Below, piece by piece: positions 24,400 to 40,384 of a stretch of 64,000 bases of DNA (positions within the stretch are counted from its first letter, which is position 1; every line of letters starts with the position of its first letter). The notes under the pieces are model-generated. The model ran no database searches, was not told the DNA's origin, and was given only the letters and a program-made list of their open reading frames with translations. This DNA comes from Escherichia coli. GTDB taxonomy: Bacteria > Pseudomonadota > Gammaproteobacteria > Enterobacterales > Enterobacteriaceae. Made by a program: the position numbers and the translations under genes. The DNA lies in the NCBI RefSeq assembly GCF_011045215.1, contig NZ_CP049202.1. One strand, written 5' to 3'.

Positions 24400-26082
24400 A
24401 TGAGTCAGAAATACCTCATTCGCATTGCAGAACTGGAAAGCCAGCTCCGCCAGAAAGACCAGCAACTGAGTCTGGTTGAAGAGACGGAGGCCTTCCTGCG
24501 CTCTGCACTGGCACGTGCCGAAGAAAAGATCGAAGAAGATGAACGGGAAATAGAACATCTGCGGGCTCAGATAGAAAAACTGCGCCGGATGCTGTTCGGT
24601 ACCCGTTCTGAAAAACTGCGTCGTGAAGTTGAACAGGCTGAGGCCCTGCTGAAACAACGCGAACAGGACAGCGATCGTTACAGTGGGCGGGAAGACGATC
24701 CACAGGTTCCCCGCCAGTTGCGACAGTCGCGCCATCGTCGTCCGTTACCGGCACACCTTCCCCGTGAAATACAGCGTCTGGAGTCTGAAGAAAGCTGTTG
24801 CCCGGAGTGTGGCGGTGAGCTGGATTATCTGGGGGAAGTCAGTGCAGAACAACTGGAACTGGTGAGCAGCGCCCTGAAAGTGATCCGCACAGAACGGGTA
24901 AAAAAAGCCTGTATAAAATGTGACTGCATCGTTGAAGCACCGGCGCCGTCCCGCCCGATAGAGCGTGGTATCGCGGGCCCCGGATTACTTGCCCGCGTGT
25001 TAACGGGAAAATACTGCGAACACCTGCCACTGTATCGTCAGAGTGAAATCTTTGCCCGACAGGGTGTCGAACTGAGCCGTGCATTACTCTCCAACTGGGT
25101 TGACGCGTGCTGCCAGTTAATGACACCGCTGAATGATGCCCTGTACCGTTATGTGATGAATACCCGCAAGCTTCACACTGACGACACACCGGTAAAGGTA
25201 CTGGCACCGGGCCTGAAAAAGACGAAAACAGGGCGCATCTGGACGTATGTCCGGGATGATCGCAATGCGGGTTCGTCATCTCCTCCGGCGGTCTGGTTCG
25301 CGTACTCACCGAACCGGCAGGGGAAACACCCGGAGCAACACCTCCGCCCCTTCCGGGGTATCCTGCAGGCGGATGCGTTCACAGGTTATGACAGGCTGTT
25401 CAGTGCAGAACGTGAAGGTGGTGCGCTGACAGAAGTTGCGTGCTGGGCCCATGCCCGGAGAAAAATCCACGATGTATACATCAGCAGCAAAAGTGCGACG
25501 GCAGAAGAAGCCCTGAAGCGAATCAGTGAACTGTACGCCATCGAGGATGAGATACGGGGATTACCAGAGTCAGAGCGTCTTGCAGTCAGACAGCAGCGAA
25601 GCAAAGCGTTACTGACGTCGCTGCATGAATGGATGGTGGAGAAGAATGGCACGCTGTCGAAAAAATCCAGACTGGGCGAAGCGTTCAGCTATGTACTGAA
25701 TCAGTGGGACGCCCTCTGTTATTACAGTGATGACGGACTGGCGGAGACGGACAATAACACAGCGGAAAGAGCGCTTCGTGCAGTCTGTCTTGGAAAGAAA
25801 AATTACGTGTTCTTCGGTAGCGATCACGGCGGCGAGCGTGGTGCACTGCTATACGGGCTGATCGGCACCTGCCGTCTGAACGGTATCGATCCGGAAGCGT
25901 ATCTGCGCCATATTCTGAGCGTACTGCCGGAATGGCCCTCCAACCGTGTTGACGAACTCCTTGCAAAATGGCATCTGAATCGATCGCAGTTTGGCATTCG
26001 AATCGATCATGATTTGGCATCCATCTCCGATCACAGTTTGGCATCACAATCGATCACGATTTGGCATACTTCCGATCATTGA
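24400..26082 (+). CDS. IS66 TnpC transposase, 3' end altered by IS21 insertion
   Basis: 560-aa ORF; the last ~35 codons read into IS21 terminal repeats. Confidence 0.75.
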   Translation: MSQKYLIRIAELESQLRQKDQQLSLVEETEAFLRSALARAEEKIEEDEREIEHLRAQIEKLRRMLFGTRSEKLRREVEQAEALLKQREQDSDRYSGREDDPQVPRQLRQSRHRRPLPAHLPREIQRLESEESCCPECGGELDYLGEVSAEQLELVSSALKVIRTERVKKACIKCDCIVEAPAPSRPIERGIAGPGLLARVLTGKYCEHLPLYRQSEIFARQGVELSRALLSNWVDACCQLMTPLNDALYRYVMNTRKLHTDDTPVKVLAPGLKKTKTGRIWTYVRDDRNAGSSSPPAVWFAYSPNRQGKHPEQHLRPFRGILQADAFTGYDRLFSAEREGGALTEVACWAHARRKIHDVYISSKSATAEEALKRISELYAIEDEIRGLPESERLAVRQQRSKALLTSLHEWMVEKNGTLSKKSRLGEAFSYVLNQWDALCYYSDDGLAETDNNTAERALRAVCLGKKNYVFFGSDHGGERGALLYGLIGTCRLNGIDPEAYLRHILSVLPEWPSNRVDELLAKWHLNRSQFGIRIDHDLASISDHSLASQSITIWHTSDH

Positions 26083-26162
26083 TTGGAATTCGCCAGTCAC
26101 TCCGGGAATTAACTCTTTTCACCACAGTCTCCATTGCCGTGTTTAAACCAGTGGAGACGTCA

Positions 26163-27728
26163 ATGTCCAAAAAGAGAAAATCCAGGAGCACTATGGAAAC
26201 TTGTTTTAAGATCCTTCAGCTCAAGTTCGATAAGAAGCTGACTAACCGTTGTATCGGACTGACGTTACACATCAGCGCCTCAACCGTTTTTGAGGTTCTT
26301 GCCCGCTTCAAAGCCTCTTCTCTGTCATGGCCATTACCTGCTGATATATCCCATGACACGCTGGAGAAACTCATTTTCCCGCCCAAAGACACCTCTGCGT
26401 CAGAGCTTGTTATGCCTGACATGCTGTACTTCGATACGGAAATGAGAAAACCTGGCGTGACGCGCCAACTGTTGTGGATGGAATACAAGGCACAGGCGGG
26501 TGACAAAGCGATGGGATACTCACACTTCTGCCGTTGCTACCGGAAGTGGAAAAAAACGCGACGCCTCTCCATGCGACAGGAGCATCGTGCTGGCGAAAAG
26601 CTCTTTATCGACTTCTGTGGTCCTACGGTCCCTGTTATTAATCCGGACACCGGAGAGATACGCCGCGTGGCAATCTTCGTGGCTGTAATGGGGGCGTCCA
26701 ACTATACCTATGTTGAAGCGTGCGAAGGTCAGGACATGATGTCATGGTTAAATGCCCACAGCCGTTGCCTGACCTTCCTGGGCGGCGTACCGAAGCTGCT
26801 CATCCCCGATAACCTCAGAAGCGCAGTGAAAAAAGCCGATCGCTATGAGCCTGTCATCAACGACAGTTATCAGGCGCTGGCTGAGCACTATGGCACGGTT
26901 ATTATCCCGGCCCGCCCGCGCAAACCTAAAGATAAACCAAAAGCAGAAAACGGCGTCCTCATCGTCGAGCGATGGCTTCTTGCCCGCATCCGTAATGAAA
27001 CCTTCCACACGCTCAGGGCGCTGAATGCACGCCTTCGGGAGTTGCTGACGGACATGAATAACCGACCAATGAAGGGATACGGTAATCAAACCCGCGCAGA
27101 ACGCTTCCGCATGCTGGATGCACCAGCACTCTCTCCGCTGCCTCTGGAGCCTTATGAATACACGGAATACAAAGCCGTGAAGGTTGGCCCTGACTACCAC
27201 GTTGAATATGCCCGTCACTGGTACTCCGTTCCACACGAACTGGTCGGTCAGCGTCTGTCACTGAAGGTGGGGCAGTCGGTGGTACAGCTCTGGCACAAGG
27301 GGCAGTGTGTGGCGCAACATCCGCGCAGCACACATGAATATAAACACACAACCAATCCGCTTCACATGCCAGAACGCCACCGGCGGCATGGGACATGGAC
27401 ACCGGAACGCCTTATCGAGCAGGGAAACCGTACAGGTCCGTCCACAGGCCGGGTGGTTGAATCCATGCTGAAAGCCAAACCCCATCCGGAGCTGGCTTAC
27501 CGTGCAGTCCTGGGTCTGCTGGCACTTCAGAAAAAATACGGCCCGGAACGGCTGGAAAAGGCCTGTTACGTTGCCCTGCACTATAACGCCCCGGACAGAC
27601 GCTTTATCGACAATCTGCTGCGTCATCATCGGGATAACGTTGAGCTTCCGTTATCCCGCCAGGGCGAACAACATCCGGCATATGCTTCAGAGCATGAAAA
27701 CCTGCGTGGTCCTGGCTACTACCACTGA
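26163..27728 (+). CDS. istA: IS21 IstA transposase
   Basis: About 521 aa from Met MSKKRK… within track ORF 26061..27728. Confidence 0.8.
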   Translation: MSKKRKSRSTMETCFKILQLKFDKKLTNRCIGLTLHISASTVFEVLARFKASSLSWPLPADISHDTLEKLIFPPKDTSASELVMPDMLYFDTEMRKPGVTRQLLWMEYKAQAGDKAMGYSHFCRCYRKWKKTRRLSMRQEHRAGEKLFIDFCGPTVPVINPDTGEIRRVAIFVAVMGASNYTYVEACEGQDMMSWLNAHSRCLTFLGGVPKLLIPDNLRSAVKKADRYEPVINDSYQALAEHYGTVIIPARPRKPKDKPKAENGVLIVERWLLARIRNETFHTLRALNARLRELLTDMNNRPMKGYGNQTRAERFRMLDAPALSPLPLEPYEYTEYKAVKVGPDYHVEYARHWYSVPHELVGQRLSLKVGQSVVQLWHKGQCVAQHPRSTHEYKHTTNPLHMPERHRRHGTWTPERLIEQGNRTGPSTGRVVESMLKAKPHPELAYRAVLGLLALQKKYGPERLEKACYVALHYNAPDRRFIDNLLRHHRDNVELPLSRQGEQHPAYASEHENLRGPGYYH

Positions 27729-27744
27729 CAGAAGGAACAACCGT

Positions 27745-28500
27745 ATGAGTGATAATCTGTTAAACAAACTGACCCAACTGAAACTCCCGGCGATGGCCGG
27801 GAGCCTGATACGGCAACGGGAAACGCCTCAGACTTACGACGAACTGTCGTTCGAGGAAAGGCTGACACTGCTGGTTGATGACGAGCTTCTGAGCAGAGAA
27901 AACAGTCGTGTGGCACGGTTGAGAAAAAATGCCTGCCTGAAATATCAGGCAACACCGGAAGGGCTGCGTTATCCGGCCTCAAGAGGTCTGCGGGCTGAAC
28001 AGATGAGGGAACTGCTGAACGGCCACTACATAATCCACAGGAAAAACCTACTGATAACCGGTCCGACAGGATGCGGTAAGAGCTGGATAGCCAATGCGCT
28101 GGGCGAACAGGCATGTCGACAGAAATACAGCGTCCGGTACTGTAGAACCGGGCGATTACTGGAACAGTTGGCTCAGGGACGTGTTGATGGCAGTTGGCTG
28201 AAATATCTGAAACAGTTGCAAAAAATACAGGTTCTAATCCTGGACGATCTGGGGCTGGAACAGTTAAGTAACGCCCAGTGTAATGACCTTCTGGAGATCA
28301 CAGAGGATCGTTACGGACAAAGCAGCACGATAGTGGTAAGCCAGTTCCCGGTAGATAAATGGCATGGTCTGATGGAGAACCCAACAACAGCAGATGCCAT
28401 CCTGGACAGACTGGTACATAACTCACACAGAGTGGTCCTTCAGGGAGAGTCCCTGAGGAAAAATCCCCCGACAGTGGAAAGCAGCGAAAAAACGAGTTAA
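27745..28500 (+). CDS. istB: IS21 IstB ATP-binding helper
   Basis: About 251 aa from Met MSDNLL… within track ORF 27502..28500; Walker A GPTGCGKS. Confidence 0.8.
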   Translation: MSDNLLNKLTQLKLPAMAGSLIRQRETPQTYDELSFEERLTLLVDDELLSRENSRVARLRKNACLKYQATPEGLRYPASRGLRAEQMRELLNGHYIIHRKNLLITGPTGCGKSWIANALGEQACRQKYSVRYCRTGRLLEQLAQGRVDGSWLKYLKQLQKIQVLILDDLGLEQLSNAQCNDLLEITEDRYGQSSTIVVSQFPVDKWHGLMENPTTADAILDRLVHNSHRVVLQGESLRKNPPTVESSEKTS

Positions 28501-28789: not shown

Positions 28790-29103
28790 GGATTTGAACT
28801 ACTCAGGCAGAGGGTCATGAGTCCACTGGCATGAAAATCTCAACCCAGGTTGCGGAAGAGCCGTTTTTCGGCTTTTGCGACATCCTGCGGCCACTGGCGC
28901 AGGGATTTAAACGGAATGTCGTAAAGTTCACAGTACTGTTCACGGGTAAGGCCGCTTGCGCGCCATGCGGCAACGTGATGTTTTTTCTGATCAAGCGTCC
29001 ATCGCATCCTGGGCATTGTTTACTCTCCACAGAAAGAAGTTATACGAATACCGGAATGCTAATGAACAGAATATTTCTGTGAAAGATGAGGTCCCCGGAA
29101 CAT
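28790..29103 (-). mobile_element. Inverted IS66 left-end fragment (terminal region plus 5' part of orf1)
   Basis: Reverse complement of 29040-29103 matches 17567-17640; ORF 28815..29030 repeats the IS66-A orf1 region. Confidence 0.65.
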
Positions 29104-29108
29104 TACGA

Positions 29109-29747
29109 TTAATTAACAGTCCAGGATTGACTGAAATTTTCTTCCTGAAACAGTTCCGTCAGCCCGCTAATCTGTTTCAGTCTCAGCACTTCATCCTGGT
29201 CCATCCCCAGCTCTGTACCAATGCGTTCATCCGTCCAGCCCAGACGTGACAGGTCTCTGACAATATCAGACATTGAGGTTATCTGGTGTTTCCCCCTGGC
29301 CCGGTTATGTCGAATGGTCGCAGCAATACGTGAGGCCTGCCCCCTTCTGTCCGGATTAATACAGGTCACTGGCAACCAGCCCTTCAGACGTTTTCCCGTA
29401 CCTGCTTCCCTGCCCAGTAATTGACGATGAAAACCATCCACGACCAGATAATGCTCCTTCTCTTCCGAGACAACCACAGGCTGCGTGAACCCATCCTGCT
29501 CCAGTGAATGTTTCAGCAGTTTTTTCTCACCCGGTGCCATGACATTGGGGTTATAATCATTGGCCACCACCTCATCCGCTTTCACCCACAGCACACAGTC
29601 CACAGGCTCCTGTGCAAAAGGACTGACCTCATGCAGCACCCTGCGCAGATGATTCAGAGCCTGTATGGTCTCTTCTTCTGCTCGCTCCTGGCTGAAGTAC
29701 TGACGAATCATGTTACCCAGTATCTCCGCTGTCACAGAATCCCCCAT
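29109..29747 (-). CDS. ibrB: ParB-like nuclease-domain protein, IbrB-like
   Basis: 212-aa ORF recognised as ParB/Srx-fold IbrB-like; overlaps upstream partner by 16 nt. Confidence 0.6.
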   Translation of the reverse strand: MGDSVTAEILGNMIRQYFSQERAEEETIQALNHLRRVLHEVSPFAQEPVDCVLWVKADEVVANDYNPNVMAPGEKKLLKHSLEQDGFTQPVVVSEEKEHYLVVDGFHRQLLGREAGTGKRLKGWLPVTCINPDRRGQASRIAATIRHNRARGKHQITSMSDIVRDLSRLGWTDERIGTELGMDQDEVLRLKQISGLTELFQEENFSQSWTVN

Positions 29748-30982
29748 TCCTTCCTCCTTTCTTTCATACGCTGCAGGTAACGTTCATAGTGCCGGGGTTT
29801 GTTCGGGCTGAAGGAGAGGGTCCGGCACCAGAAATCATTCTTTATGAGTGTCTTACAGATACGTCGCCAGGACGGAATATCCCGGCAGCCCAGGTCATTT
29901 TCCTGTTCATCCGGGATATCGTCCGGGAAGCCCCGCGTTTGATACCAGCGCAGGTAGACAGCAATTTTGTTACGGTAATGTTCTGCCGTTCTTTCCGGCA
30001 TCACATCCAGCAGGAACATCGCATAGCTGCGCCAGGTATGATGAGCCGGTTTTGATATACGTTTACGCAGGGCAAAATAGGCACCGCTTTCATTGGCATA
30101 ACGCGCCCCACTGGCAGCCCCTGACACCCGCTCACACATCCTGGCCCAGGTTTCCGGCTCCAGAACATGGTAAAGCCACAGCCCCTTACGTTGTTCCGGG
30201 CCAAAAGGCTCACAGACACGCATGTTACGTAACGGCACACCGGCACGGTACATCAGGTCATACAGGGGATTGTAGATGGCACGGGTTCTGGCGTTATATA
30301 TCCAGATATCACGGGCTTTCCAGTCATACAATGGATACATGGTGTAGTAAAACCCTTGAGGTGATGCCGTGGTCCAGGGTTTATCATCGGCATATCTGAG
30401 CTTACGCTGAGACACCAGTCCCATAAAGCGGTTGAGGGATTCATCCGCACGGACACCAGTCAGTATCGCCACACCGCACCGGTTACCGGCAAACCAGGAA
30501 GAAAATGCCGGAACAAATTCTTCAAAGGTCATGGCATACCGGTAGAAGGGAAAATACGCCATATCCGTAATGGCCTCTTCCGGTGGCTGACGGACCCAGG
30601 TCACACCAGGTTCCCAGCATATCCACTCCGGCTGAAACTGTGAGACACCGTTTACCGTGGTCAGGGGAAGTGCCACCCAGTAAAAGGTCTCCGTCACATC
30701 CCCGTACATATTCCGCATCTTCTGAATATGTTCAACGGTACACTGGTACTGGGCTTCCCAGTCAATGAACAGTACAGAGAATCGACGTTTTTTCCTGCGG
30801 GCCACATTTGCCACAAGATGGAACAGTACGGTGGAATCCTTTCCACCTGAAAAAGACAGACATACCGACGGAAATGTTTCAAAAACCCACTCAATGCGGG
30901 CAATTGCAGCACGCAGAACGTTATTACCTGTCAGGATTTTTGTGATGAAAGAGTCATTCACTTCTGCTTTTCTCATTAACAA
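29732..30982 (-). CDS. ibrA: PAPS-reductase/PP-loop ATP-pyrophosphatase family protein, IbrA-like
   Basis: 416-aa ORF with PP-loop motif SGGKDS near N-terminus; operon partner of ParB-like gene. Confidence 0.6.
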   Translation of the reverse strand: MLMRKAEVNDSFITKILTGNNVLRAAIARIEWVFETFPSVCLSFSGGKDSTVLFHLVANVARRKKRRFSVLFIDWEAQYQCTVEHIQKMRNMYGDVTETFYWVALPLTTVNGVSQFQPEWICWEPGVTWVRQPPEEAITDMAYFPFYRYAMTFEEFVPAFSSWFAGNRCGVAILTGVRADESLNRFMGLVSQRKLRYADDKPWTTASPQGFYYTMYPLYDWKARDIWIYNARTRAIYNPLYDLMYRAGVPLRNMRVCEPFGPEQRKGLWLYHVLEPETWARMCERVSGAASGARYANESGAYFALRKRISKPAHHTWRSYAMFLLDVMPERTAEHYRNKIAVYLRWYQTRGFPDDIPDEQENDLGCRDIPSWRRICKTLIKNDFWCRTLSFSPNKPRHYERYLQRMKERRKEWGIL

Positions 30983-31614
30983 ATAAGAGGCTCTCCTCTT
31001 CCCGAAGAATTCTCCTGGCTATATATCCTGAGCACCCGGCGCAACCCTGAGAAAAATCAGGAATAACACATATCAGAAATCATCTTCTGTTAATCCCCTG
31101 CCACGACGTGTGCATAAAAATAATAAACACCAGACGCTTCCTGACAATAACTACCAGCCAAATGGTCTGCCACAGTCTGTACTGTTATCTTCACACCCAT
31201 GGTCCCTGATTCGTTCCATTCGTATATCGCGCTTCTGATGTCCTTTACTGTCCTCTTTATATATCGGTGTACCTGCCCCTCCTGTTATAATCTGTTCCCT
31301 GCCGCTGTAAATCGCTTCATCTGGCGGAACACAGGATGTAATACAGAATAACACGGTCAGTACCGGGTAACATAATAAACATCTTTTCCTGAACATAATA
31401 TTACACCGTAAAACATTACTCCTGTTAATCAGAACCACATGCCCGGTTTTTTAATCTTTTATAAAACATTATTTCTCCGCTCCCTCCCACTGATAACGCG
31501 CCTGACAATCTCCGGCCGTTTTCTTTCTCATGCCCCTCCCCGGACTCATCATTCAGCATCAGCGAAATTTCACTACTCCCCCCTGAATGTCTGTCTCCGG
31601 CACCGCCCTTCCGG

Positions 31615-32454
31615 TTAACTGACCGGGATGTAAAGCGTACAGAACACCCGCTCCTCATGGTAACGAAAGACGAGTATGTCCACCCCGGGCGTACGGACAA
31701 CTCCATGAGCGGGCAGGATGTTCATATAAATGTAATCTGCACGGGCCGCATGGGTGGTCGTTGTGGTCTCAAACGTGACAGACAGGTAATCCCCCTCGGC
31801 CCATGAGAAGACGTTTCCGCACGGGTTATCCGGTGCGCCCACACCACAACGGACCTCATAATCCCCTTTCCTGCCTCCCACCGGCGTTATTGCCGTCACC
31901 ACCAACCACTGAGCCTCCTGCTGACAGGCAAACACACTTTCGGAAAATGCCGCCGCCCCGTTATCCCGGACCTCATGTATACGGCCGGAAAACGTCAGTG
32001 GTCGTCCCACAATACGGCCTTCCGGAAGATGAACCCTCTCCGGGACCGGAACAGAAAAAGAGATGCCGGCACGACCTGCCAGCGGCAAAAGCCGCCATTC
32101 CGGCTGGCTGCGGTACTGTCCGGGCGTCACGCCGGCTGTTTTCCTGAATTCACGGTTAAATGTCTGCTGGGAATCAAATCCCAGACTACAGGCAATATCC
32201 TGAAACCCACGTAACGACAGGCGACAGAGCAGGGCAGCCCGACTCAGTCGCCTGCGACGAATATATTCGCCCAGCCGCATTCCCGTCTCCAGCAGAAAAA
32301 TACGCTGCAGATGTCTGCGGCAGTAACCGGAATAAGCACTCAGTGAATGAATGCTCATCCGTTTACCACTTTCAAGATGAAGTTCGATATATTCGATAAT
32401 CCTGTCAATGGTCATTTTCCGTATCAGCGCCGTCCCTGTCTTTTTATCATTCAT
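31615..32454 (-). CDS. AraC-family transcriptional regulator with N-terminal HTH and C-terminal GyrI-like effector domain (Rob-type architecture)
   Basis: 279-aa ORF; N-terminal AraC HTH signature (…DSQQTFNREFRK…TPGQYR); paralogue of 39180..40085. Confidence 0.7.
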   Translation of the reverse strand: MNDKKTGTALIRKMTIDRIIEYIELHLESGKRMSIHSLSAYSGYCRRHLQRIFLLETGMRLGEYIRRRRLSRAALLCRLSLRGFQDIACSLGFDSQQTFNREFRKTAGVTPGQYRSQPEWRLLPLAGRAGISFSVPVPERVHLPEGRIVGRPLTFSGRIHEVRDNGAAAFSESVFACQQEAQWLVVTAITPVGGRKGDYEVRCGVGAPDNPCGNVFSWAEGDYLSVTFETTTTTHAARADYIYMNILPAHGVVRTPGVDILVFRYHEERVFCTLYIPVS

Positions 32455-32474
32455 GTTGTTTTTCTGATTTCACA

Positions 32475-33353
32475 TCATGTTTTCAGACCAAAAGAAAATG
32501 ACACCCCTCTGACTCCCCCGTTCCCCTTTATGAAGCCCGGCCCGGCACGCAGAGAGAAAACATGACCACCAACACAGAAGGGAATACTGAACAACAGTTG
32601 CGTCTCATTCACCAGACTGAATCCCAGGTCTTCTTTCCAGCCCGGACCGTAAAAACCTCCGGTATTGTTTTCCACAATGACATCACTTCCGCGCCCCATC
32701 ACACGGAACACATCCCGGAACGTATAAGTCATCCTGACGGAATAACTTCCCGCGTGCGAACCAATATCATGACGGGATGATGAGAATTCACGCAGGGATA
32801 AAAATGAGAGACCCGGACTCAGGGTAAAATTACCGGACGTTATCGTACTGCTGATTTCGGGGGAAACAATCAGGGCATTTTTTCGCTCCCACCCCAGCAC
32901 CTCTTCATAATTTTCATCACCTTCCATCCCGCGACTCATGTTGCGAACCCGGGCATATCCCACGCCCAGACCTCCCCTGACTGAAACATGTTCAGACAAC
33001 CTGACGGTGACATCTGTCCCCACAAGCGTGCCATATGACCGCCAGTGAACCACGGCACCATCATCAACATCCCCTTTCAGGTCAATATAACTTCCCCTGA
33101 GGTACACCCCGGAGCAGACCATCCCCGTGTCATACAGACATTCGCTGTGCCAGGGAACAGTCCAGCGGGAATATTTCCCCCCTCCCTCTGTCCGCAATCC
33201 GGAAGCACTGATGTCATCCGAAAAATGCATACTTAATATTCTGGCATAAGTGCCTGACAGTTCATGACTGTACCCGTAAACCGGTATGACAATACCTGCC
33301 AGAAGTAAAATGAGACGCCATGCTCCCCTGTGATGTTCCACCTGAATGTTCAT
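32475..33353 (-). CDS. Hypothetical exported/outer-membrane protein
   Basis: Track ORF 32475..33452; probable start at internal Met (MNIQ…) followed by a signal-peptide-like segment; GC-rich. Confidence 0.4.
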   Translation of the reverse strand: MNIQVEHHRGAWRLILLLAGIVIPVYGYSHELSGTYARILSMHFSDDISASGLRTEGGGKYSRWTVPWHSECLYDTGMVCSGVYLRGSYIDLKGDVDDGAVVHWRSYGTLVGTDVTVRLSEHVSVRGGLGVGYARVRNMSRGMEGDENYEEVLGWERKNALIVSPEISSTITSGNFTLSPGLSFLSLREFSSSRHDIGSHAGSYSVRMTYTFRDVFRVMGRGSDVIVENNTGGFYGPGWKEDLGFSLVNETQLLFSIPFCVGGHVFSLRAGPGFIKGNGGVRGVSFSFGLKT

Positions 33354-33387
33354 AACATCCACTCCCTGCAACCCAAAACACACCCTC

Positions 33388-34533
33388 TCACGGACAGAAT
33401 CTGTCACGGGAGACACTGTCCCCGGCCCGGGCCCGGGACGCCAGCCCCGCAAAATCCTTCCCGGTGTAATACCCTTCCGGTACCGGAAGACGCTTCATGT
33501 CCTGTCCGGGCCAGAGCTGTAATTCCGCCAGCACCGCGGCTTCCGGTCTGAGAGGGAGCGACAGGCGCAGTGGCTTCATATCGCCCCCCGGAACAGATAC
33601 GGGAAGCCGGTCCGCATCAACATCATAATTGCGCTTTATCACCAGCCACTTGTCCGGCAGAAGACACCGGCTGTTCCACCACACCCTGTCCAGCATACGG
33701 AGCTGAAAACGGGTACGGGACACCGCGCCACCTCCCAGATGAACCAGCACCTGTTTCAGCGCATTCTGCATGGCCGTTTCATACATTCGCCTGTCTGCCG
33801 TCTGTCCGCTGAAGATAAGAGAGAGGGCCACTCTTGCCCCCAGAAGATTGGACCACAGATCCTCCGGTGAAAATGCCGACACAGTTTCAGGATAACCCGG
33901 TACGGATTCGAAGCCGTACCACTGTGCAATTTCATGCCATACCGCCAGCTGGTATGCCAGACGGGCTGATATTTCCGCGGCCAGCACATAACGGTCCCGG
34001 ACGGAAGACGGGGGAGTGAATGCCCGGAAAACCAGCCGCCGTTGTGCCAGTTCATCTCTGCCCGGAGACAACACAAACGCCTGCCCCAGACGTGGCCACA
34101 GACGGGTAAAAATAAACACCGTCATATCCGCCGTATCACGGACATGCGCCGTATCAACAAATCCCCCCTGCGTGGTGAAAATGATACCGTTATGCTCTCT
34201 TCCGCCCCCTGTCAGAGACAACATGCCGGAAACAAAACTGTCGTTGTAATGGTGTCCCCCGGTACTGCCGGCCTCCACCACATTGTCCAGATGAAAGAAT
34301 GGCAATGGTGTACGGAGCCACGGCACCCTCACCCCCAGGTCATACCCAAACGCACAGCAGGCCCGTAACCCCTCCGGGGGGGATAACGGAGGCATAACCG
34401 GCCAGGCACTCGTTGTCATTTCCTTCCCGTCCAGCCATAAAGGAAGCGGAAGTGCGGCCTGCGCCTGACAACACCATAACAACAAAAATAACAACCATTT
34501 TATTTTCTGTTGTCTGTCAGTAATATATCCCAT
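33388..34533 (-). CDS. Hypothetical exported protein
   Basis: 381-aa ORF with N-terminal signal peptide (…LLWCCQAQA); GC-rich. Confidence 0.45.
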   Translation of the reverse strand: MGYITDRQQKIKWLLFLLLWCCQAQAALPLPLWLDGKEMTTSAWPVMPPLSPPEGLRACCAFGYDLGVRVPWLRTPLPFFHLDNVVEAGSTGGHHYNDSFVSGMLSLTGGGREHNGIIFTTQGGFVDTAHVRDTADMTVFIFTRLWPRLGQAFVLSPGRDELAQRRLVFRAFTPPSSVRDRYVLAAEISARLAYQLAVWHEIAQWYGFESVPGYPETVSAFSPEDLWSNLLGARVALSLIFSGQTADRRMYETAMQNALKQVLVHLGGGAVSRTRFQLRMLDRVWWNSRCLLPDKWLVIKRNYDVDADRLPVSVPGGDMKPLRLSLPLRPEAAVLAELQLWPGQDMKRLPVPEGYYTGKDFAGLASRARAGDSVSRDRFCP

Positions 34534-34625
34534 ACTGCATTATTCCGGTTATGAAATTCACTCCGCAGTAATATATGAATGCCGTTTCAGATATTACCGG
34601 ATATCAGATTTCCGTCCTGTCTTTG

Positions 34626-34931
34626 TCAGACAAGAAACCACTGTCTGGACAACCTGTTATTATTTTCGTCGTAATCCACCAGTCCGGCTTCATACAAAAA
34701 ATTCAGACAGATACAACACTGGCGCACAGACATATCCAGTCCGTACGCAATATCAATAACACGAAACAAGACTTCACCATATTTATCCTCCCGGAATTTC
34801 ATCCAGAGGAGCAGTGCTTCACAGTCATCCTGATATAATGCGGTATTGTCCCTGCGTTTCATGGTTTTGTCACACATAGATAATCTCCTGTGCATGCGGG
34901 AATAACATACACATTGCAACAAATATTCCAC
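34626..34931 (-). CDS. Hypothetical small protein
   Basis: 101-aa ORF in operon-like context; no recognisable motif. Confidence 0.25.
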   Translation of the reverse strand: MEYLLQCVCYSRMHRRLSMCDKTMKRRDNTALYQDDCEALLLWMKFREDKYGEVLFRVIDIAYGLDMSVRQCCICLNFLYEAGLVDYDENNNRLSRQWFLV

Positions 34932-35074
34932 AAAGATATTAATATATTAAATTTTATTATCGTCAGCCCGGCATTATTTCTTTTTTGTGCACCCGCTGAA
35001 TCTAATCATGGTATTTATCCTGATACGGCGATAATTATATTATCGCCGTATCCACCGGGCTGTCTTCTCCAGGT

Positions 35075-36028
35075 TCAGAACCGGTATTCACCGGAAACAA
35101 AAAAACTTTTCCGCTTTTCAAACCCCGCTTCGGCGATAAGACTGAAGTGCCGGCTGGGGTCATAGCGTATGCCAGCCAGCATGTTCCACGGTTTTTTCAG
35201 ATGCTGCCTGACATCAAAACGCGCATCCCCCGTTTTATTCAGTTGTGACAACCCCGCCTGCAGTGCAGGTGATGGCATATTCAGGTCATTCAGTTTACCC
35301 CTGAAGCGCTGTTCAACATCCTGGTACATCCCCCCGACCCATACACTCATTCTGCCCGCAGAACTCTGCAGTACCGGTACCGAAGGGACATCAAAGTAAT
35401 ACCCCACCCGGGGTGAGAATGTGACAGTATCAATATGACCATCAAGAATATCAAAGCGTGTCTGCGTATAATTGGCATCCAGCGAGGTGAACCAGTTATT
35501 CATCCCGCCCACCAGGGTGGTGCCGACACCATATGTGGTTCCCTGAAAATCCAGACGGAACTTCAGGTTCTGTGTACCGGCCCCCGGAAACGCCCCGCCG
35601 GTAAACAGAGGTGTTCGGACCCGGATATCTGATACAGACTGTCCGGTTGTTTTTCCCAGAAGCCCATACAGATTCATAAAAGGAAACACCCATGCATCAA
35701 ACCGGAGTGTTCCGGTATGACTTTTCTGTCGGGTCTTTCCGGCATCAATATGTACAATATTATCCAGAGGAAGTCTGCCCAGGTGTAACCCGGAAAACCG
35801 GATACTGTCCACCGATATCCCCTGCCGGATTTGCATATAATTCAGATTAACACCAAATGGTTCCGGCAGTTCATAACCTTCTGCCAGCTCCCGGAAAAAC
35901 GGCAGTACAGACTGTTCACGTCTGACTTCCGGAGCAGCAGACACTTCAGCAGCCCCCGCCTGGTGACTGAATACCCCCGGCAGAACAGCAGCCATCAGGG
36001 CCGCCTGAATACAGCTTTTCATCATCAT
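35075..36028 (-). CDS. Putative outer-membrane beta-barrel protein
   Basis: 317-aa ORF with signal peptide (…SHQAGA), alternating-hydrophobic pattern, C-terminal …GEYRF; immediately downstream of virK-like gene. Confidence 0.45.
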   Translation of the reverse strand: MMMKSCIQAALMAAVLPGVFSHQAGAAEVSAAPEVRREQSVLPFFRELAEGYELPEPFGVNLNYMQIRQGISVDSIRFSGLHLGRLPLDNIVHIDAGKTRQKSHTGTLRFDAWVFPFMNLYGLLGKTTGQSVSDIRVRTPLFTGGAFPGAGTQNLKFRLDFQGTTYGVGTTLVGGMNNWFTSLDANYTQTRFDILDGHIDTVTFSPRVGYYFDVPSVPVLQSSAGRMSVWVGGMYQDVEQRFRGKLNDLNMPSPALQAGLSQLNKTGDARFDVRQHLKKPWNMLAGIRYDPSRHFSLIAEAGFEKRKSFFVSGEYRF

Positions 36029-36033
36029 CCTGG

Positions 36034-36975
36034 TTACATCAGCGTTATTGTGTTTCTGAAATCACAGCCATTCTGCTGTGCAGCCATCAGCCCTCGCCGT
36101 ACCTCATCAAGCAGGGCATTTCGCCTTCTGTACTCAGCCCGTTTTCTTGCAGGGATTTCACCGGCATCTTTACGGGGTAGTTCCGGAGGCAGGTACCAGA
36201 ACCCATCAAAATATTTTCCTCCGGCAGACTTCCAGCACTCACTGTAACGGGCAACAAACCGGCCCTTTTTCTGGTAAAAATAACGCAACTGCCGCATCAC
36301 ATGATTGTCCTCACTGACAGCCACTATCCCCCCGGCTCCGCACATCCCTGCCACCACACTCAGTGCCTCACAGAGCAGACGGCGCGGAAACAGGCCATAA
36401 CAGGCACGGGTGGCCTCCCGGATAATCGCTGTGCCCGTCCCCGCTGCAGGCCCCTGCAATCCCCCGACAAACACCATCCGGTGCCCCTGCCAGTAAAGAA
36501 GTGTGAAGGAAATACGGGTGATAACCTCACCATTAAAACGCAGTATCAGCATCAGCTCCCCCTCGCGGTCAAAGCCACAGGGGGAACAACTGATATCCAG
36601 CCACCTGCCGTCCTTCCCTTCGGTGCGGACAAGCGATGTTTCCCGGCTGACGTTCAGCATTCGCCTGACCTCCTGCGGAAGGCTCCGGATAAGATGATAA
36701 TGGTCAAGAACTGCCTGTACCCGGAATCCGGTGCGACTGTTCCGGAAGAGATAGGGACGGTGAATCTTGGCCGGTAAGGTCGGGTTGACCTCAAGAAGAT
36801 CGTCGATATCGCTCAGTTCACACAGGGCACGAAAATAATGGGTTGTGATCAGAGGATGACAACAACAACGCAGCAGAAATTTATAACGAAACTTTCTGTC
36901 CTCCCACTTCCCTCTGTGGAAAGTACGGCCAGTCATCAGTTTCACAACAAGCGAAATAACAGACAGATTACTCAT
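36034..36975 (-). CDS. virK: VirK-family (DUF535-like) protein
   Basis: 313-aa ORF; size and position after deacetylase and glycosyltransferase match the shf-capU-virK arrangement of Shigella/EAEC plasmids. Confidence 0.5.
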   Translation of the reverse strand: MSNLSVISLVVKLMTGRTFHRGKWEDRKFRYKFLLRCCCHPLITTHYFRALCELSDIDDLLEVNPTLPAKIHRPYLFRNSRTGFRVQAVLDHYHLIRSLPQEVRRMLNVSRETSLVRTEGKDGRWLDISCSPCGFDREGELMLILRFNGEVITRISFTLLYWQGHRMVFVGGLQGPAAGTGTAIIREATRACYGLFPRRLLCEALSVVAGMCGAGGIVAVSEDNHVMRQLRYFYQKKGRFVARYSECWKSAGGKYFDGFWYLPPELPRKDAGEIPARKRAEYRRRNALLDEVRRGLMAAQQNGCDFRNTITLM

Positions 36976-37056
36976 AATATTCAGATGGTATGTCAGATAT
37001 CAGATAACACAGTCCATAACTCAAAAACAAAATACCCGTCTCCTGTACAGGCAACA

Positions 37057-38160
37057 TCAGAAGGGCAGACAGCCCAGCGACAACAGCCTGTCAAGGGTTA
37101 CCTCCATACTGAAACGACTCATCACATCCCTGCGGGCCATGGCCGCCATTTCCGCGAACCCGGCCGGTGCGGACAGGTACGCACGCAGGGCTTCCAGCCA
37201 GGCCTGCCGGTTATCCGGCGGGAGCAGAATACCGGTCCGCTCATGATGAATGACGGAAGATAACCCTCCTGTATTACTGGCCATTACCGGCACACCACAT
37301 GCAGCAGCCTCCACTGCAGCCATACCAAATGATTCACAGGTGGAAGGCATCACCATCAGGGAAGCCACCCTGTAGAGCGGATATACCGGCGTAAGATAAC
37401 CGCATATCAGTACACCCCCTTCCATCCCCAGCGCATGAATTTTACGGCGTAACAGGCGCTCCTCTTCCGGACGCCCGCCACCGACTATCAGCCAGTGAAA
37501 CTGGCCTCCCTCACGTTTCAGATGAAAGAGTGTTTTCAGCATGAAATCCAGGCCTTTCTCCGGACGTAACATTCCGATCTGAACAATGACCGGATGAGGT
37601 GCTCTCGCTTCCAGCCATTCACGAACATGTTCCGGCAGGGGCATGCTCATGGCTTCCCGGATTGCATCAAAATCAAATCCCGGTGAAACCACCCGGATGG
37701 TGTTTGTACATCCCGCAGCCTGCAGCGCCTCCTTCATCGCCTGTCCGGGGACAGCAACGGCATCACAGAAGTGATTCAGCGAAAACACCTCCATCTTTCG
37801 GGTCAGATATGTCTTCTGACGGACAATACTGAACCTGCCCGCCCCTCCGGTAAGCGTGGCCCGGGTCAGAGCCACTGTGTTACTGTCATGTCCGCTGTGA
37901 CACACCACCATATCCGGCCGGAAAGTCAGAACAAGACGACGGAGTCGCCAGACTGATGAAAAATGCAGACTGTTCCTGAAAGGAATATATGTAACCGCAG
38001 TCTGCTGCCTGACCGCTTCCGCGGCTATCCGGCTGTTTTCGCGACATGCCAGCATGACACTGTGCCCGGCACGCTGCATTGCAGCCATCTGAGCCAGCGC
38101 CTGCAACTCCTGACCACCAATATTGGGAGAGGATTCGGTATAAAGAATTTTCATCACCAC
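37057..38160 (-). CDS. capU: Family-1 glycosyltransferase (CapU/RfbU/WabB-like hexosyltransferase)
   Basis: 367-aa ORF with GT-B features (N-terminal …NIGGQE…, C-terminal E-x7-E-like region). Confidence 0.7.
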   Translation of the reverse strand: MVMKILYTESSPNIGGQELQALAQMAAMQRAGHSVMLACRENSRIAAEAVRQQTAVTYIPFRNSLHFSSVWRLRRLVLTFRPDMVVCHSGHDSNTVALTRATLTGGAGRFSIVRQKTYLTRKMEVFSLNHFCDAVAVPGQAMKEALQAAGCTNTIRVVSPGFDFDAIREAMSMPLPEHVREWLEARAPHPVIVQIGMLRPEKGLDFMLKTLFHLKREGGQFHWLIVGGGRPEEERLLRRKIHALGMEGGVLICGYLTPVYPLYRVASLMVMPSTCESFGMAAVEAAACGVPVMASNTGGLSSVIHHERTGILLPPDNRQAWLEALRAYLSAPAGFAEMAAMARRDVMSRFSMEVTLDRLLSLGCLPF

Positions 38161-38163
38161 CTC

Positions 38164-38994
38164 TCAGTCATCATTCAGCCGGGGCCCCTTATGAAGGGCC
38201 AGAAGCGATGAAAAAAACGGAGTGGTGTAATAAAAGAGACGGCGCTTCAGCCAGCCGGAATGTTCACGCTCCTTTGTACTGATACGCCCGATACGCCGGG
38301 GACCCGCCACCGGTGAATTCATCCGCCGCTCAGTGGTGTAGAGGTGGGTGAATCCCAGTTTCTCCGCCACCCTGATATAGTCCGGATTGTAATACCCCTC
38401 CGGCCAGCATAAATGACGACTGCATGAACCGGTCATTTGCCTCATTCGCGCCTGTCCGAGAAGAATATCGGACTCAAGAAAGACGGACGGCTCACGGACG
38501 TTATCCAGCAGATCCCAGCGACGGTGGGTATGTGTGTGCAGATGAAACTCGACCAGCCCGCTCCGGCTCATTTCCCTGACCTCAGACCAGCGCAGCATGA
38601 CATCATCAGCCCGCCCCTGTGCAATCAGGGTCTCGCATTCCCGGTGAGAAAACATATGACGCCCCCCGCTTTCTTCATGTTGCCGGGCGGGACCATCACC
38701 GATAAGCCCCGTGACAAGAAAGATATGAGCCCGGAGACCAAATGCCTGTAACACCGGAAAGGCATAAAACCAGTTATCCAGGTAGCCGTCATCAAAGGTC
38801 AGCATGACGCTTTTGCGTGGCAGTTTCCCGCCACAATAAAAGAATTCCATTTCAGCTGCCGAAACAGTTTTCCAGCCATTTTCAGCCAGCCACTGCATCT
38901 GCTCACGGAAAGTCCGGAGTGAAAGCGTCACCAGCCCTGGATTATTACTGATATGGTGATACATTAATACAGGTAAGTAATGTGCATAAAGCAT
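38164..38994 (-). CDS. shf: Polysaccharide deacetylase-family protein (Shf/IcaB-like)
   Basis: 276-aa ORF with TFDDGY motif characteristic of NodB-type deacetylases; first gene of cluster. Confidence 0.7.
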   Translation of the reverse strand: MLYAHYLPVLMYHHISNNPGLVTLSLRTFREQMQWLAENGWKTVSAAEMEFFYCGGKLPRKSVMLTFDDGYLDNWFYAFPVLQAFGLRAHIFLVTGLIGDGPARQHEESGGRHMFSHRECETLIAQGRADDVMLRWSEVREMSRSGLVEFHLHTHTHRRWDLLDNVREPSVFLESDILLGQARMRQMTGSCSRHLCWPEGYYNPDYIRVAEKLGFTHLYTTERRMNSPVAGPRRIGRISTKEREHSGWLKRRLFYYTTPFFSSLLALHKGPRLNDD

Positions 38995-39179
38995 TTTATG
39001 ATATAACTTAATAAAATAAGTGATTTTTAACCATCTAAAACAAATATTTTATTTATTGAAATGATTTTGCTACACGCTGTCTTGTCTTTTTATGCAAACA
39101 CCCGGCATTAAAAGTTATTTTTTCGGGAATGCTGAATGCACCTCGCATATATAGCCTTCCTAAAATAGGAGTAAAAACT

Positions 39180-40085: not shown

Positions 40086-40384
40086 ATCTTGACCTTATAC
40101 ATCACCGGGAAGCATACGCCAGAAAGCAATTAAGCATGTTTGTGCTTTTTATTTATTGTTTTTTTGTGCACTCAACACTTTATTCTCTATATAAACCCAT
40201 GTTAAAAATGTTAAATTATATTTTGCCATAAACAATGAAGTATTTAACCCCAATAAACAAACCACTATTTACACATGATTAATCATGCAAATGGATACCA
40301 ATTTATTGAGGCTGTTACCGTGGTTAATTAACGTAATATTATTCGGTTAATTATTATTAACAGTAATGTCATATAAATATAAAA

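Follow-up and report, generated by a model that had tools for sequence, protein, structure and literature searches.

What does an Escherichia coli plasmid gain from a pair of overlapping genes for a PP-loop enzyme and a ParB-like protein, and do the two belong to any system already known? The pair lies in a 64,000-nucleotide (nt) stretch of DNA (the window). The initial annotation had called it IbrAB-like and, in architecture, DndB/DndC-like, and had considered its biochemical role unclear. The two open reading frames (ORFs) that it described, of 416 and 212 amino acids (aa) with 16 nt in common, were found at these positions:

29732..30982, minus strand: ibrA, encoding a PP-loop ATP-pyrophosphatase-type enzyme with PAPS_reduct-like and DUF3440 domains (ORF)
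29109..29747, minus strand: ibrB, encoding a ParB/Noc/KorB-like protein of 212 aa (ORF, phrog_2159, PDB profile, AF2 model, and Foldseek)
29732..29747, minus strand: 16-nt overlap between the ibrA stop and the ibrB start (ORF coordinates)

The length of 416 aa for IbrA is counted from a TTG start, with AGGAG located 9 nt on its 5' side; the start is ambiguous, because RefSeq copies begin at ATG 30976 (414 aa) or GTG 30961 (409 aa). Comparison with three other alleles gave dN/dS values of 0.08 to 0.12 for ibrA and ibrB, which shows that they are real coding genes and that purifying selection acts on both (dN/dS of about 0.1). The 16-nt overlap probably couples the translation of ibrB to that of ibrA, and short overlaps or small gaps were the usual junction among 79 paired loci.

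Identity and distribution of the pair

Judged by sequence comparison, the pair is a plasmid allele of the known and already named E. coli genes ibrA and ibrB and is not new. The description "IbrAB-like" was correct and even understated, since the locus is an actual ibrAB allele, down to the gene order and the overlap. On three plasmids of ruminant E. coli, the pair occurs at 99.8% identity, and the annotated plasmid copies overall were 99.6 to 99.8% identical. Chromosomal E. coli copies, which are annotated as "IbrB-like," shared approximately 93% nt identity with the window pair; the two proteins were 92.8% and 94.8% identical (aa) to those of NCTC9082, chromosomal alleles overall showed 92 to 95% aa identity to the window proteins, and the "IbrA" of Escherichia phage PhiR5_2 was 91.8% identical (aa) to the window IbrA. 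The weight of the finding at the level of the window is small, as this is a catalogued allele that RefSeq already annotates as ibrAB on near-identical plasmids. The family itself is noteworthy for its strong conservation and its spread over many plasmids and phages, and 37% of the complete E. coli genomes had it. Hundreds of Klebsiella hypervirulence plasmids and Escherichia plasmids carry ibrAB, as do 224 phage records, the phages with the pair range from Firmicutes to Bacteroidota, and most copies are chromosomal or phage borne.

Related loci were collected with a 10-sequence alignment, an 86-sequence alignment being too diverse as a query. Of 80 loci drawn from many phyla, 79 had ibrB directly downstream of ibrA on the same strand, and the pairing recurred in Streptococcus, Mycobacterium, and Flavobacterium phages; it is essentially obligatory, and the two genes form one unit. 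The distance matrices of IbrA and IbrB were correlated (Mantel r = 0.67). Two further partners recurred: an SNF2-type helicase gene immediately upstream of the pair (16 of 80 loci) and a gene for a small GNAT-like protein (about 19 of 80 loci). The surroundings varied otherwise. In virulent S. thermophilus phages, the pair is part of an accessory region flanked by the lysis genes and the early genes; it lies beside the terminase gene in mycobacteriophages, and adjoins siderophore genes on Klebsiella plasmids, and the paralogous pair ybdNM occupies a conserved chromosomal site. In one E. coli island, the pair adjoins a TerB/ATPase/helicase trio, which we take to resemble the Shango defense system, and in another island, it adjoins the gene for an ATP-dependent nuclease. 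The judgment that the biochemical role is unclear agrees with the searchable literature, in which the biochemistry of the family appears only in annotation-level mentions more than 20 years after the genetic description; a 2025 survey of ParB folds mentions neither IbrB nor PAPS reductase (PMC12704722).

Domains, folds, and conserved residues

The PP-loop motif SGGKDS reported in the initial annotation was located at residues 45 to 50 of IbrA, within the first of two domains:

30833..30850, minus strand: PP-loop SGGKDS, residues 45 to 50, ATP beta/gamma-phosphate binding motif (sequence)
30245..30865, minus strand: PAPS-reductase-like alpha-hydrolase domain of IbrA, about residues 40 to 246
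29795..30241, minus strand: helical C-terminal DUF3440 domain of IbrA, about residues 248 to 396

In Pfam, IbrA matched PAPS_reduct (5e-7 and 1e-6) and DUF3440 (6e-24). Its AF2 model (pLDDT 92.6) matched CysH, the PAPS domain of FAD synthase, and CysD, and the DUF3440 domain had no structural match in the PDB. Profile search and structure comparison thus agreed on the PP-loop/PAPS_reduct assignment, and a CysH-type fold was found, in that IbrA has a PAPS-reductase-like alpha-hydrolase domain; as modeled, IbrA adopts the PAPS-reductase/FMN-adenylyltransferase/CysD fold with an intact ATP PP-loop. SGGKDS was kept in 91 to 97% of 82 diverse IbrA representatives (27 to 53% identity). About 20 charged or polar positions were nearly invariant among them, which, together with the motif, indicates that IbrA is an enzyme. 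The conserved residues of the alpha-hydrolase domain were D74, E76, R131, R178, E181, S182, R185, D220, D225, N238, and Y241. Long representatives were inspected for domain fusions, and only insertions, one of them intein-like, and probable frameshift products were found.

PAPS reductase (CysH) carries a C-terminal catalytic cysteine motif, ECGLH. Among the 82 IbrA representatives, no family-conserved cysteine was found. The sole column with 84% cysteine (column 104) holds alanine in the window IbrA, some members have no cysteine in any candidate column, and the position of C257 is cysteine in just 44% of representatives. It follows that IbrA is neither a PAPS reductase nor a DndC, and the label "auxiliary sulfur metabolism gene" on phage copies is therefore probably wrong.

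In IbrB, a helical hairpin at the N terminus precedes a nucleotide-binding N-domain of the ParB type and a helix-turn-helix (HTH) domain, with the following features:

29424..29438, minus strand: DGFHR motif of IbrB, residues 104 to 108, at the position of ParB box II (GERR; HMM alignment to Noc/ParB)
29292..29312, minus strand: RHNRARG motif of IbrB, residues 146 to 152 (96 to 100% conserved)
29151..29282, minus strand: helical HTH-type region of IbrB, about residues 156 to 199, LGMDxDEVLRLKQ (secondary structure and Foldseek)

The ParB-like character claimed for this protein is evident from a PHROG match (phrog_2159, 9e-82), from its family profile against the PDB (Noc, 6e-8; ParB, 2e-6), and from Foldseek matches of its AF2 model (pLDDT 86.7) to Noc/ParB/KorB at 3e-8, in which the alignments with 7nfu, 6sdk, and 8qa9 extended over 150 to 180 columns and spanned the N-domain and the HTH; by Pfam alone, it is nonsignificant (ParB_N, E = 0.013). 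IbrB also matched fusions of a ParB domain to a DNA methyltransferase (phrog_498, 6e-8), and the ParB/Srx-fold enzymes SerK and SbnI were among its profile matches. Within DGFHR, conservation is 100% for D, G, and R and 98% for H; compared with GERR, the G and the last R are retained, F takes the place of the catalytic E, and H takes that of R. We propose RHNRARG as a candidate counterpart of ParB box III. The protein ends approximately 13 residues past the HTH helices, and a C-terminal dimerization domain is absent; together with the replacement of the catalytic Glu by Phe, this makes a ParB-style CTP clamp doubtful for IbrB. ParB-fold proteins are nucleotide gated and can bind CTP, ATP, or GTP, and their nucleotide specificity is unpredictable from sequence (PMC12704722).

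Flanking DNA and the adhesin cluster

The initial annotation had the pair bracketed by IS66 fragments and mobilized as a unit. IS66 DNA was found on one side only, and on the other side, the sequence from 30983 to 31700 is unique non-IS DNA that runs into an AraC/Rob-type gene; neither the bracketing nor the mobilization as a unit found support. The flanking features are as follows:

28843..29016, minus strand: IS66 TnpA fragment truncating the locus (NCBIfam 1e-7 and blastn), 93 nt downstream of ibrB
30983..31614, minus strand: 632-nt non-IS region upstream of ibrA
31615..43912, minus strand: codirectional cluster upstream of ibrAB (conserved gene order)

The 632-nt region contains a small conserved ORF and, at 31120..31147, a putative promoter, a sigma-70-like site identified by consensus match only. 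The cluster upstream of it is headed by an intact trimeric autotransporter (TAA) gene (40385..43912), followed by a Rob/AraC-type regulator, a polysaccharide deacetylase, GT4, VirK/YbjX, hypothetical proteins, DUF4056, and a second Rob/AraC-type regulator (31615..32454), and ibrAB forms its end. This order was kept in pCeylon31IncF, and both the order and the TAA linkage were kept in an E. fergusonii plasmid with about 5% divergence. The three TAA loci counted in the window by the initial annotation were roughly right: besides the intact gene just named, there is a locus that a frameshift has split (13859..16043) and a fragment from the N terminus (9067..9573). Other ibrAB alleles adjoin a classical autotransporter gene or another TAA gene, and the neighborhood contained an adhesin gene in only about five of nine sampled contexts; pathogenicity islands are rich in adhesin genes in any case. 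The proposed link to TAAs thus gains circumstantial support from conserved cluster linkage and from adhesin-adjacent alleles.

The upstream regions of the TAA and AraC genes have a GC content of 28 to 34%. Neither a palindrome resembling parS nor a common motif was found upstream of ibrA and of the three TAA loci, beyond chance 10- to 12-mers. A perC-family gene follows ibrB in six of the nine sampled contexts and in most E. coli alleles, and no perC homolog was found in the window, where the IS66 fragment stands in its place. Co-induction of ibrB with the adjacent perC upon host-cell contact has been described (PMC7649339).

Proposed function and comparison with known systems

The identity of ibrAB, the folds of its products, the intact PP-loop, the lack of a catalytic cysteine, the obligatory pairing, and the purifying selection are established here. 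We regard the chances as evenly balanced that the plasmid ibrAB is functional and encodes a DNA-targeted adenylylating enzyme and a ParB-like partner that raise the expression of silenced surface adhesins. In this proposal, ibrAB would be a module of two genes that travels on mobile elements. DNA binding is the most probable activity of IbrB, and a bound nucleoside triphosphate may gate it. IbrA would be an ATP-consuming PP-loop enzyme, and its nearest relatives by structure are adenylyltransferases, namely FMNAT/FAD synthase and CysD. The most probable reaction of IbrA is the adenylylation of an oxygen on a target delivered by IbrB, with the release of PPi, and in our thinking, that target would be DNA. 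In E. coli, the outcome would be increased transcription of poorly expressed, horizontally acquired genes for surface proteins, and the likely targets on the window plasmid are those of the AT-rich TAA/adhesin cluster that ibrAB ends. DNA as the substrate, adenylylation as the chemistry, and the neighboring TAA cluster as the target are what we infer; hints of a DNA substrate come from the upstream SNF2-type helicase and from the phrog_498 match of IbrB. The presence of the pair in virulent phages and beside siderophore genes on Klebsiella plasmids indicates that adhesin activation is not its ancestral role. A broader conjecture, which we hold to be improbable, is that phages, plasmids, and genomic islands share a widespread non-sulfur system that modifies or marks DNA and has ibrAB at its core, with a ParB-like loader that brings a cysteine-free PP-loop adenylyltransferase to DNA, and that the mark or the DNA-protein complex wakes silenced adhesin genes in enterobacteria and serves phages in another way. 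In some lineages, such a system would also include an SNF2 translocase or a GNAT-like protein, and phages might benefit, for example, by evading restriction.

IbrA may instead spare DNA and AMPylate IbrB or another protein, or make or alter a nucleotide ligand that switches IbrB, which would then be a conventional anti-silencer or transcription factor. The nucleotide gating of ParB-fold proteins (PMC12704722), the matches of IbrB to SerK and SbnI, the GNAT-like third partner, and the use of small molecules by the closest structural relatives (conversion of FMN into FAD and of sulfate into APS) fit this alternative, but the SNF2 helicase partner and the similarity to ParB-methyltransferase fusions point to DNA, and the size and conservation of the DUF3440 domain suggest that the substrate is a macromolecule. 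We rate it as rather unlikely. The pair could also be a module of phage-host conflict, serving in antiphage defense or in counterdefense by phages and mobile elements, such as the marking of self DNA against restriction, with eib activation as a side effect. This is consistent with the phage records, among them those of virulent S. thermophilus phages with the pair in an accessory region, with the adjoining Shango-like trio and ATP-dependent nuclease in E. coli islands, with the resemblance of the SNF2 partner to the DISARM and Zorya helicases, and with a weak PADLOC match to BrxP (28.4 bits), which covers residues 25 to 104 at the N terminus of IbrA only. However, a full-length match to BrxP was lacking, no BREX genes were found near the pair, PADLOC returned no system-level match for the pair and no match at all for IbrB, and no restriction-type effector is consistently linked; furthermore, the pair lies beside the terminase in mycobacteriophages, and the paralog ybdNM, at its conserved place in the chromosome, is controlled by a LysR repressor (PMC9068703). 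We regard a conflict module as quite an unlikely explanation.

It is very unlikely that the pair is a Dnd/Ssp-type module of DNA phosphorothioation, with IbrA as DndC/SspD and IbrB as DndB. The architectural likeness to DndB and DndC claimed at the outset stands at the level of superfamilies, in that a PP-loop is present in both enzymes and the DGFHR of IbrB resembles the DGQHR of DndB, and weak DndC matches were obtained (NCBIfam, 0.009; PADLOC, 1.7e-4, with no significant domain). It does not extend to the families: the DndC profile TIGR03183 scored 14.9 bits against a cutoff of 290.4 bits, TIGR03187 and TIGR03233 gave no match at E<=0.01, no DndB/DGQHR match was obtained, and the single match of IbrB was to Noc (5e-4). 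DndC requires C280 to ligate its [4Fe-4S] cluster (PMC11662687), whereas IbrA has no conserved cysteine and the window protein has alanine in the 84%-cysteine column. Nor was a cysteine desulfurase gene (dndA/iscS), dndD, or dndE found nearby, where the neighbors are an AraC-type regulator gene, a small ORF, and IS elements. The cutoff scores and the absent cysteines largely refute phosphorothioation. Taken literally, the RefSeq product names, which the PAPS_reduct match and the ParB fold echo, would make the pair a PAPS reductase of sulfate assimilation beside a plasmid-partition ParB, which is exceedingly improbable. The PAPS reductase profiles TIGR02057 (36 bits against 254.2) and NF002537 (34.6 against 154) scored below their cutoffs, and these scores and the lack of conserved cysteines rule out a PAPS reductase; moreover, the PP-loop is a canonical ATP PP-loop, and IbrA is paired with IbrB. 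A role in plasmid partition is ruled out by the lack of a ParA gene next to the pair, the missing dimerization domain, and the chromosomal location of most copies.

The options for the pair are thus narrowed to an IbrA that is neither a PAPS reductase nor a DndC and that comes with a ParB/KorB-like partner. Should the pair indeed control TAAs and other adhesins on ruminant E. coli plasmids, as in the adhesin-activating proposal, it would be a regulator of virulence and colonization. The closest known system is IbrA/IbrB of E. coli ECOR-9 (Sandt, Hopper & Hill 2002), which comprises the same genes, with the likeness judged via RefSeq "IbrB-like" loci; as cited in PMC7649339 and PMC4490671, genetic work showed ibrAB to activate the expression of the eib genes, which encode TAAs (Sandt 2002). 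The window copy shares gene order, short overlap, and domain architecture with chromosomal ibrAB but is plasmid borne, is tied to a TAA/glycosyltransferase cluster, and has an IS66 fragment instead of a following perC-family gene; approximately 14 N-terminal codons and both flanks differ, and the homology is limited to 29129..30941. YbdN/YbdM of E. coli K-12 is a paralogous pair of the same PAPS reductase/DUF3440 and ParB-like architecture, with about 58 to 62% aa identity to IbrA, and is repressed by the adjacent LysR regulator YbdO/CitR (PMC9068703).

Likeness to DndC/DndB (and to SspD and BrxP) lies in the combination of a PAPS-reductase-like PP-loop enzyme with a ParB/Srx-superfamily protein bearing xGxHR, and DndC-type chemistry is thought to start with an ATP-dependent activation, as would that of IbrA. 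Unlike DndC, IbrA lacks Fe-S or catalytic cysteines and falls far under the family cutoffs, the partners DndA, DndD, and DndE are missing beside ibrAB, and IbrB, with its ParB N-domain and HTH, fails the DndB profiles, so that the DGFHR likeness is at the level of the motif. IbrA differs from FMN adenylyltransferase and CysD in its extra DUF3440 domain (about 170 residues) and in its conserved substrate-side residues, and from CysD also in having no CysN-like GTPase partner. With the ParB-CTPase regulators VirB, KorB, and Noc, IbrB shares the N-domain and HTH fold and a location on mobile elements, and VirB provides a precedent for a ParB-like protein that relieves the silencing of AT-rich, horizontally acquired genes (PMC10770331). 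IbrB departs from these regulators in having DGFHR rather than GERR in box II and no C-terminal dimerization domain, and compared with VirB and KorB, the obligatory enzymatic partner, IbrA, is specific to IbrB.

Identity and distribution of the gene pair

The initial annotation described two open reading frames with a 16-nt overlap, the first encoding an SGGKDS PP-loop motif, and all of these features were found in the sequence, on the minus strand, with the motif at residues 45 to 50.

29732..30982, minus strand: ibrA, 416 aa counted from a TTG start
29109..29747, minus strand: ibrB, 212 aa

The start of ibrA is ambiguous among TTG, ATG, and GTG: AGGAG lies 9 nt 5' of the TTG, and RefSeq copies start either at an ATG 2 codons downstream of it (1,245 nt) or at a GTG 7 codons downstream (1,230 nt). 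The dN/dS values of both genes, 0.08 to 0.12 against chromosomal, O157:H7, and Klebsiella plasmid alleles, indicated genuine coding genes under purifying selection.

By sequence comparison the pair is assigned to ibrAB, which is already known and annotated, and the name first given to it was correct. The 1.87-kb coding region showed 99.8% identity on the ruminant E. coli plasmids C5 plasmid A, pCeylon31IncF, and CP057674, 94.8% identity to E. fergusonii plasmids, and about 89 to 93% identity to chromosomal copies, with homology to the chromosomal alleles confined to the two genes alone (29129..30941). RefSeq names the products "phosphoadenosine phosphosulfate reductase" and "IbrB-like domain-containing protein," and in a temperate E. 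coli phage the same genes (91.8% amino acid identity) are annotated IbrA and IbrB. Copies with at least 80% query coverage were found in 2,031 of 5,426 complete E. coli genomes, chromosomal for the most part and in as many as four places per genome. A total of 579 PLSDB plasmids had a match, 508 of them at at least 80% query coverage, including 318 Klebsiella and 61 Shigella plasmids. In three sampled plasmids of these 61, the alignment spanned just 40% of the query, at the ibrB end; on a Shigella flexneri pINV-type plasmid (L091 5979..6617), ibrB alone survives, with IS2 and IS600 in place of ibrA. The one Klebsiella plasmid inspected of the 318, an IncFIB/IncHI1B liver-abscess plasmid of Klebsiella pneumoniae (L090 6981..8842), carries an allele of about 89% nucleotide identity between fecIRA and iroBCD. 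K-12 has a paralogous pair, ybdNM, whose repressor is YbdO/CitR (PMC9068703). The literature found on ibrAB function consists of genetic information alone: the genetics of Sandt (2002), as cited in PMC7649339 and PMC4490671, has ibrAB enhancing expression of the immunoglobulin-binding Eib proteins, which are trimeric autotransporters (TAAs).

Folds and conserved residues of IbrA and IbrB

The PP-loop assignment of the first protein was borne out by Pfam, which matched PAPS_reduct in split form together with DUF3440, and the AF2 model was confident (pLDDT, 92.6; pTM, 0.90). Among 82 full-length family representatives with 27 to 53% mutual identity, hardly any variation was seen in the PP-loop and at about 20 charged or polar positions, and no conserved cysteine was found: the best column, with 84% Cys, corresponds to Ala104 in the window protein, C257 is Cys in no more than 44% of members, and some members lack Cys in every candidate column. 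Residue 104 (window 30669..30671) lies in the sole widely conserved Cys column, in a W-x-C-x-P context, and Ala also occupies it in homologues from Edwardsiella, Neisseria, and Martelella (P0014, P0106, and P0113), in the representative P0056, and in phage PhiR5_2.

CysH requires a catalytic cysteine, and to our knowledge the characterized PP-loop sulfurtransferases all rely on conserved cysteines. IbrA scored 36 bits against the curated PAPS reductase model (cut-off, 254) and 14.9 bits against the curated DndC model (cut-off, 290). Because these scores are far under the cut-offs and no cysteine is conserved, IbrA is judged to be neither a PAPS reductase nor DndC, and sulfur-transfer chemistry is unlikely, given the dependence of characterized sulfurtransferases on such residues. 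IbrA is predicted to be an active ATP-pyrophosphatase or adenylyltransferase-type enzyme. One 631-aa representative (P0266) contains an insertion of about 240 residues (IbrA positions ~217 to 455) that looks intein-like by eye (CTPDHRW...); inteins are usually found at conserved sites of DNA-metabolism proteins.

The ParB-like fold proposed for the second protein was likewise supported. The Pfam ParB_N match of IbrB was below significance alone (E = 0.013); phrog_2159 matched at 9e-82, and the family profile (79 sequences) matched Noc (6e-8), ParB (2e-6), and Spo0J, as well as the ParB/Srx-fold kinases SerK and SbnI. The AF2 model (pLDDT, 86.7) aligned with Noc, ParB, and KorB across 150 to 180 columns, comprising the nucleotide-binding N-domain and the HTH domain, whereas sulfiredoxin aligned over a core of ~87 residues only. 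The family motifs NxYNPN, VDGFHR, TIRHNRARGxH, and LGMDxDExLRLKQ were 90 to 100% conserved. The ParB GERR box aligns with DGFHR, which keeps the Gly and final Arg and has Phe in place of the Glu, and the C-terminal dimerization domain is absent from IbrB. No ParA gene was adjacent to ibrB, and IbrB had no DndB or DGQHR profile match.

An obligatory pair and its genomic settings

In one-genome-per-species contigs, 79 of 80 loci had ibrA followed directly by an IbrB-type gene in the same orientation. The loci span Enterobacterales, Bacteroidota, Verrucomicrobiota, Clostridia, Bacilli, Alphaproteobacteria, Fibrobacterota, Actinomycetota, Helicobacter, and an Asgard MAG; in the single unpaired locus, the contig ends 166 nt past ibrA. 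IbrA and IbrB distances were correlated (Mantel r, 0.67; maximum of 999 permutations, 0.09). The two genes thus form one unit, and their pairing is obligatory. Relatives of IbrA occurred in 224 phage records, among them virulent Streptococcus thermophilus and S. equinus phages, with an overlapping pair between the lysis and early modules, and Flavobacterium phages, with gene order B then A. In Mycobacterium phage Obutu (L008 1..4474), the PAPS-reductase-like gp4 and ParB-like gp5 genes overlap by 4 nt directly upstream of the large terminase gene, a place where the small terminase would be expected; gp1 is a second ParB-like gene unrelated to gp5.

Two lineage-specific third partners of ibrAB appeared. 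An SNF2-type helicase gene lay immediately upstream of ibrA in 16 of 80 loci, and about 19 of 80 encoded a small protein weakly similar to GNAT proteins. The helicase (~420 aa, SNF2-rel_dom plus Helicase_C, same strand; L028 4739..5983, L032, L041, L053, L060, L063, and others) was seen in Opitutales, Clostridia, Alphaproteobacteria, Desulfobacteraceae, and Chitinophaga, and "DNA helicase" ORFs also lie just upstream of the pair in Streptococcus phage PY1. The GNAT-like partner (~120 to 140 aa; RibT, 5e-4; a few members match Pfam GNAT models) is encoded between ibrA and ibrB in Clostridia and Sphingomonas (L034 2000..2359, L043-L052, and L059) and upstream of ibrA in Bacteroides (L063 and L068-L083).

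In the window, the pair forms the 3' end of a block of ~15 kb with IS elements at its bounds.

28843..29016: IS66 TnpA fragment, 93 nt downstream of ibrB
31615..40085, minus strand: conserved block between the TAA and ibrAB, with two Rob/AraC-type regulators, deacetylase, GT4, VirK/YbjX, and DUF4056
40385..43912, minus strand: intact TAA, 1175 aa, at the far end of the cluster from ibrA

The pair had been described as bracketed by IS66, which is wrong, because no IS lies on the upstream side of ibrA; the 632-nt spacer there is unique DNA common to related plasmids. Past the IS66 fragment, an IS21 copy is inserted beside the IS66 tnpC gene; this element (istA/istB, 26061..28500, plus strand) lies between tnpC (24400..26082) and ibrB and looks like a recent insertion, since it is not at the corresponding position in C5 plasmid A or pCeylon31IncF. 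Between the AraC-type gene and ibrA, an 81-aa ORF (31151..31396, minus strand) encodes a signal peptide of the lipoprotein type (MFRKR..., lipobox ITSC); the C5 and Ceylon31 plasmids have copies with 100% identity, the E. fergusonii plasmid matches at 81/82 aa, and the ORF is annotated in no record.

Starting from ibrA, the co-directional upstream cluster comprises a Rob/AraC-type regulator, a hypothetical gene, DUF4056, further hypotheticals, VirK/YbjX, a GT4 glycosyltransferase, a polysaccharide deacetylase, a second Rob/AraC-type regulator, and the intact TAA. The block, including a TAA remnant, is kept in an E. fergusonii plasmid at ~5% divergence. GC content is 28 to 34% in the regions upstream of the TAA and AraC genes, as expected for H-NS-silenced DNA, and no motif common to these regions and the ibrA upstream region was found. 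In a second TAA gene (13859..16043, plus strand), a frameshift separates ORFs of 531 and 199 aa (the C5 homologue is intact, 767 aa); over its last 202 aa, the second TAA shares 97% identity with the membrane-anchor end of the 1175-aa TAA, which hints that TAA genes have recombined. Within the fimbrial region lies an orphan piece of a TAA N terminus (9067..9573, plus strand; ~169 aa), 76% identical to residues 7 to 155 of the 1175-aa TAA.

Elsewhere, one ibrAB allele follows a classical autotransporter gene at a distance of 153 nt, another lies 4 kb from a different TAA beside F17 fimbriae, and the O157:H7 allele is close to cah and a POTRA/TPS gene; further alleles adjoin siderophore genes. 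The association with adhesins is suggestive. The ibrAB locus of E. coli ABU 83972 (L097 11886..15092), unrelated to the one in the window, likewise adjoins PIG-L deacetylase, glycosyltransferase, acetyltransferase, and YaiO outer-membrane protein genes. A PerC-family regulator followed ibrB in six of nine sampled contexts and was absent from the window; in L002, L003, L092, L094, L095, and L098 it was usually accompanied by a hypothetical gene of ~215 aa. As perC follows ibrB in most E. coli alleles, and as contact with epithelial host cells induces ibrB in STEC along with the adjacent perC and the hypothetical gene (PMC7649339), the usual unit may be ibrA-ibrB-perC, truncated in the window.

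Proposed role and alternatives

The best-supported reading is that ibrAB is a two-protein unit activating poorly expressed, horizontally acquired surface-protein genes. IbrB, resembling ParB, KorB, and VirB, would bind DNA; IbrA would use ATP to adenylylate a target, most likely DNA or something held at DNA; and such genes, in the window presumably the TAA cluster, would be switched on. The likeliest of four alternatives differs in the substrate, with IbrA working on IbrB or a nucleotide ligand instead of DNA. Next in likelihood is a phage-host conflict module; the PADLOC defense models did not match the pair, and one allele lies beside a TerB/ATPase/helicase trio, which we take to be the Shango defense system.

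Phosphorothioation of the Dnd type ranks third and is largely refuted. The analogy drawn in the initial annotation holds at superfamily level and fails beyond it: the DndC score is far too low, IbrB matches neither DndB nor DGQHR, and IbrA lacks conserved cysteines for the [4Fe-4S] cluster, with Cys ligands, that DndC requires (PMC11662687). The literal annotation of the pair as a PAPS reductase plus a partition ParB ranks last and is refuted by the PAPS reductase score and the lack of a conserved cysteine and of ParA. The family is spread very widely in phages and virulence plasmids. For activation of poorly expressed surface-protein genes by ibrAB, the ParB-like VirB provides a precedent in anti-silencing (PMC10770331).
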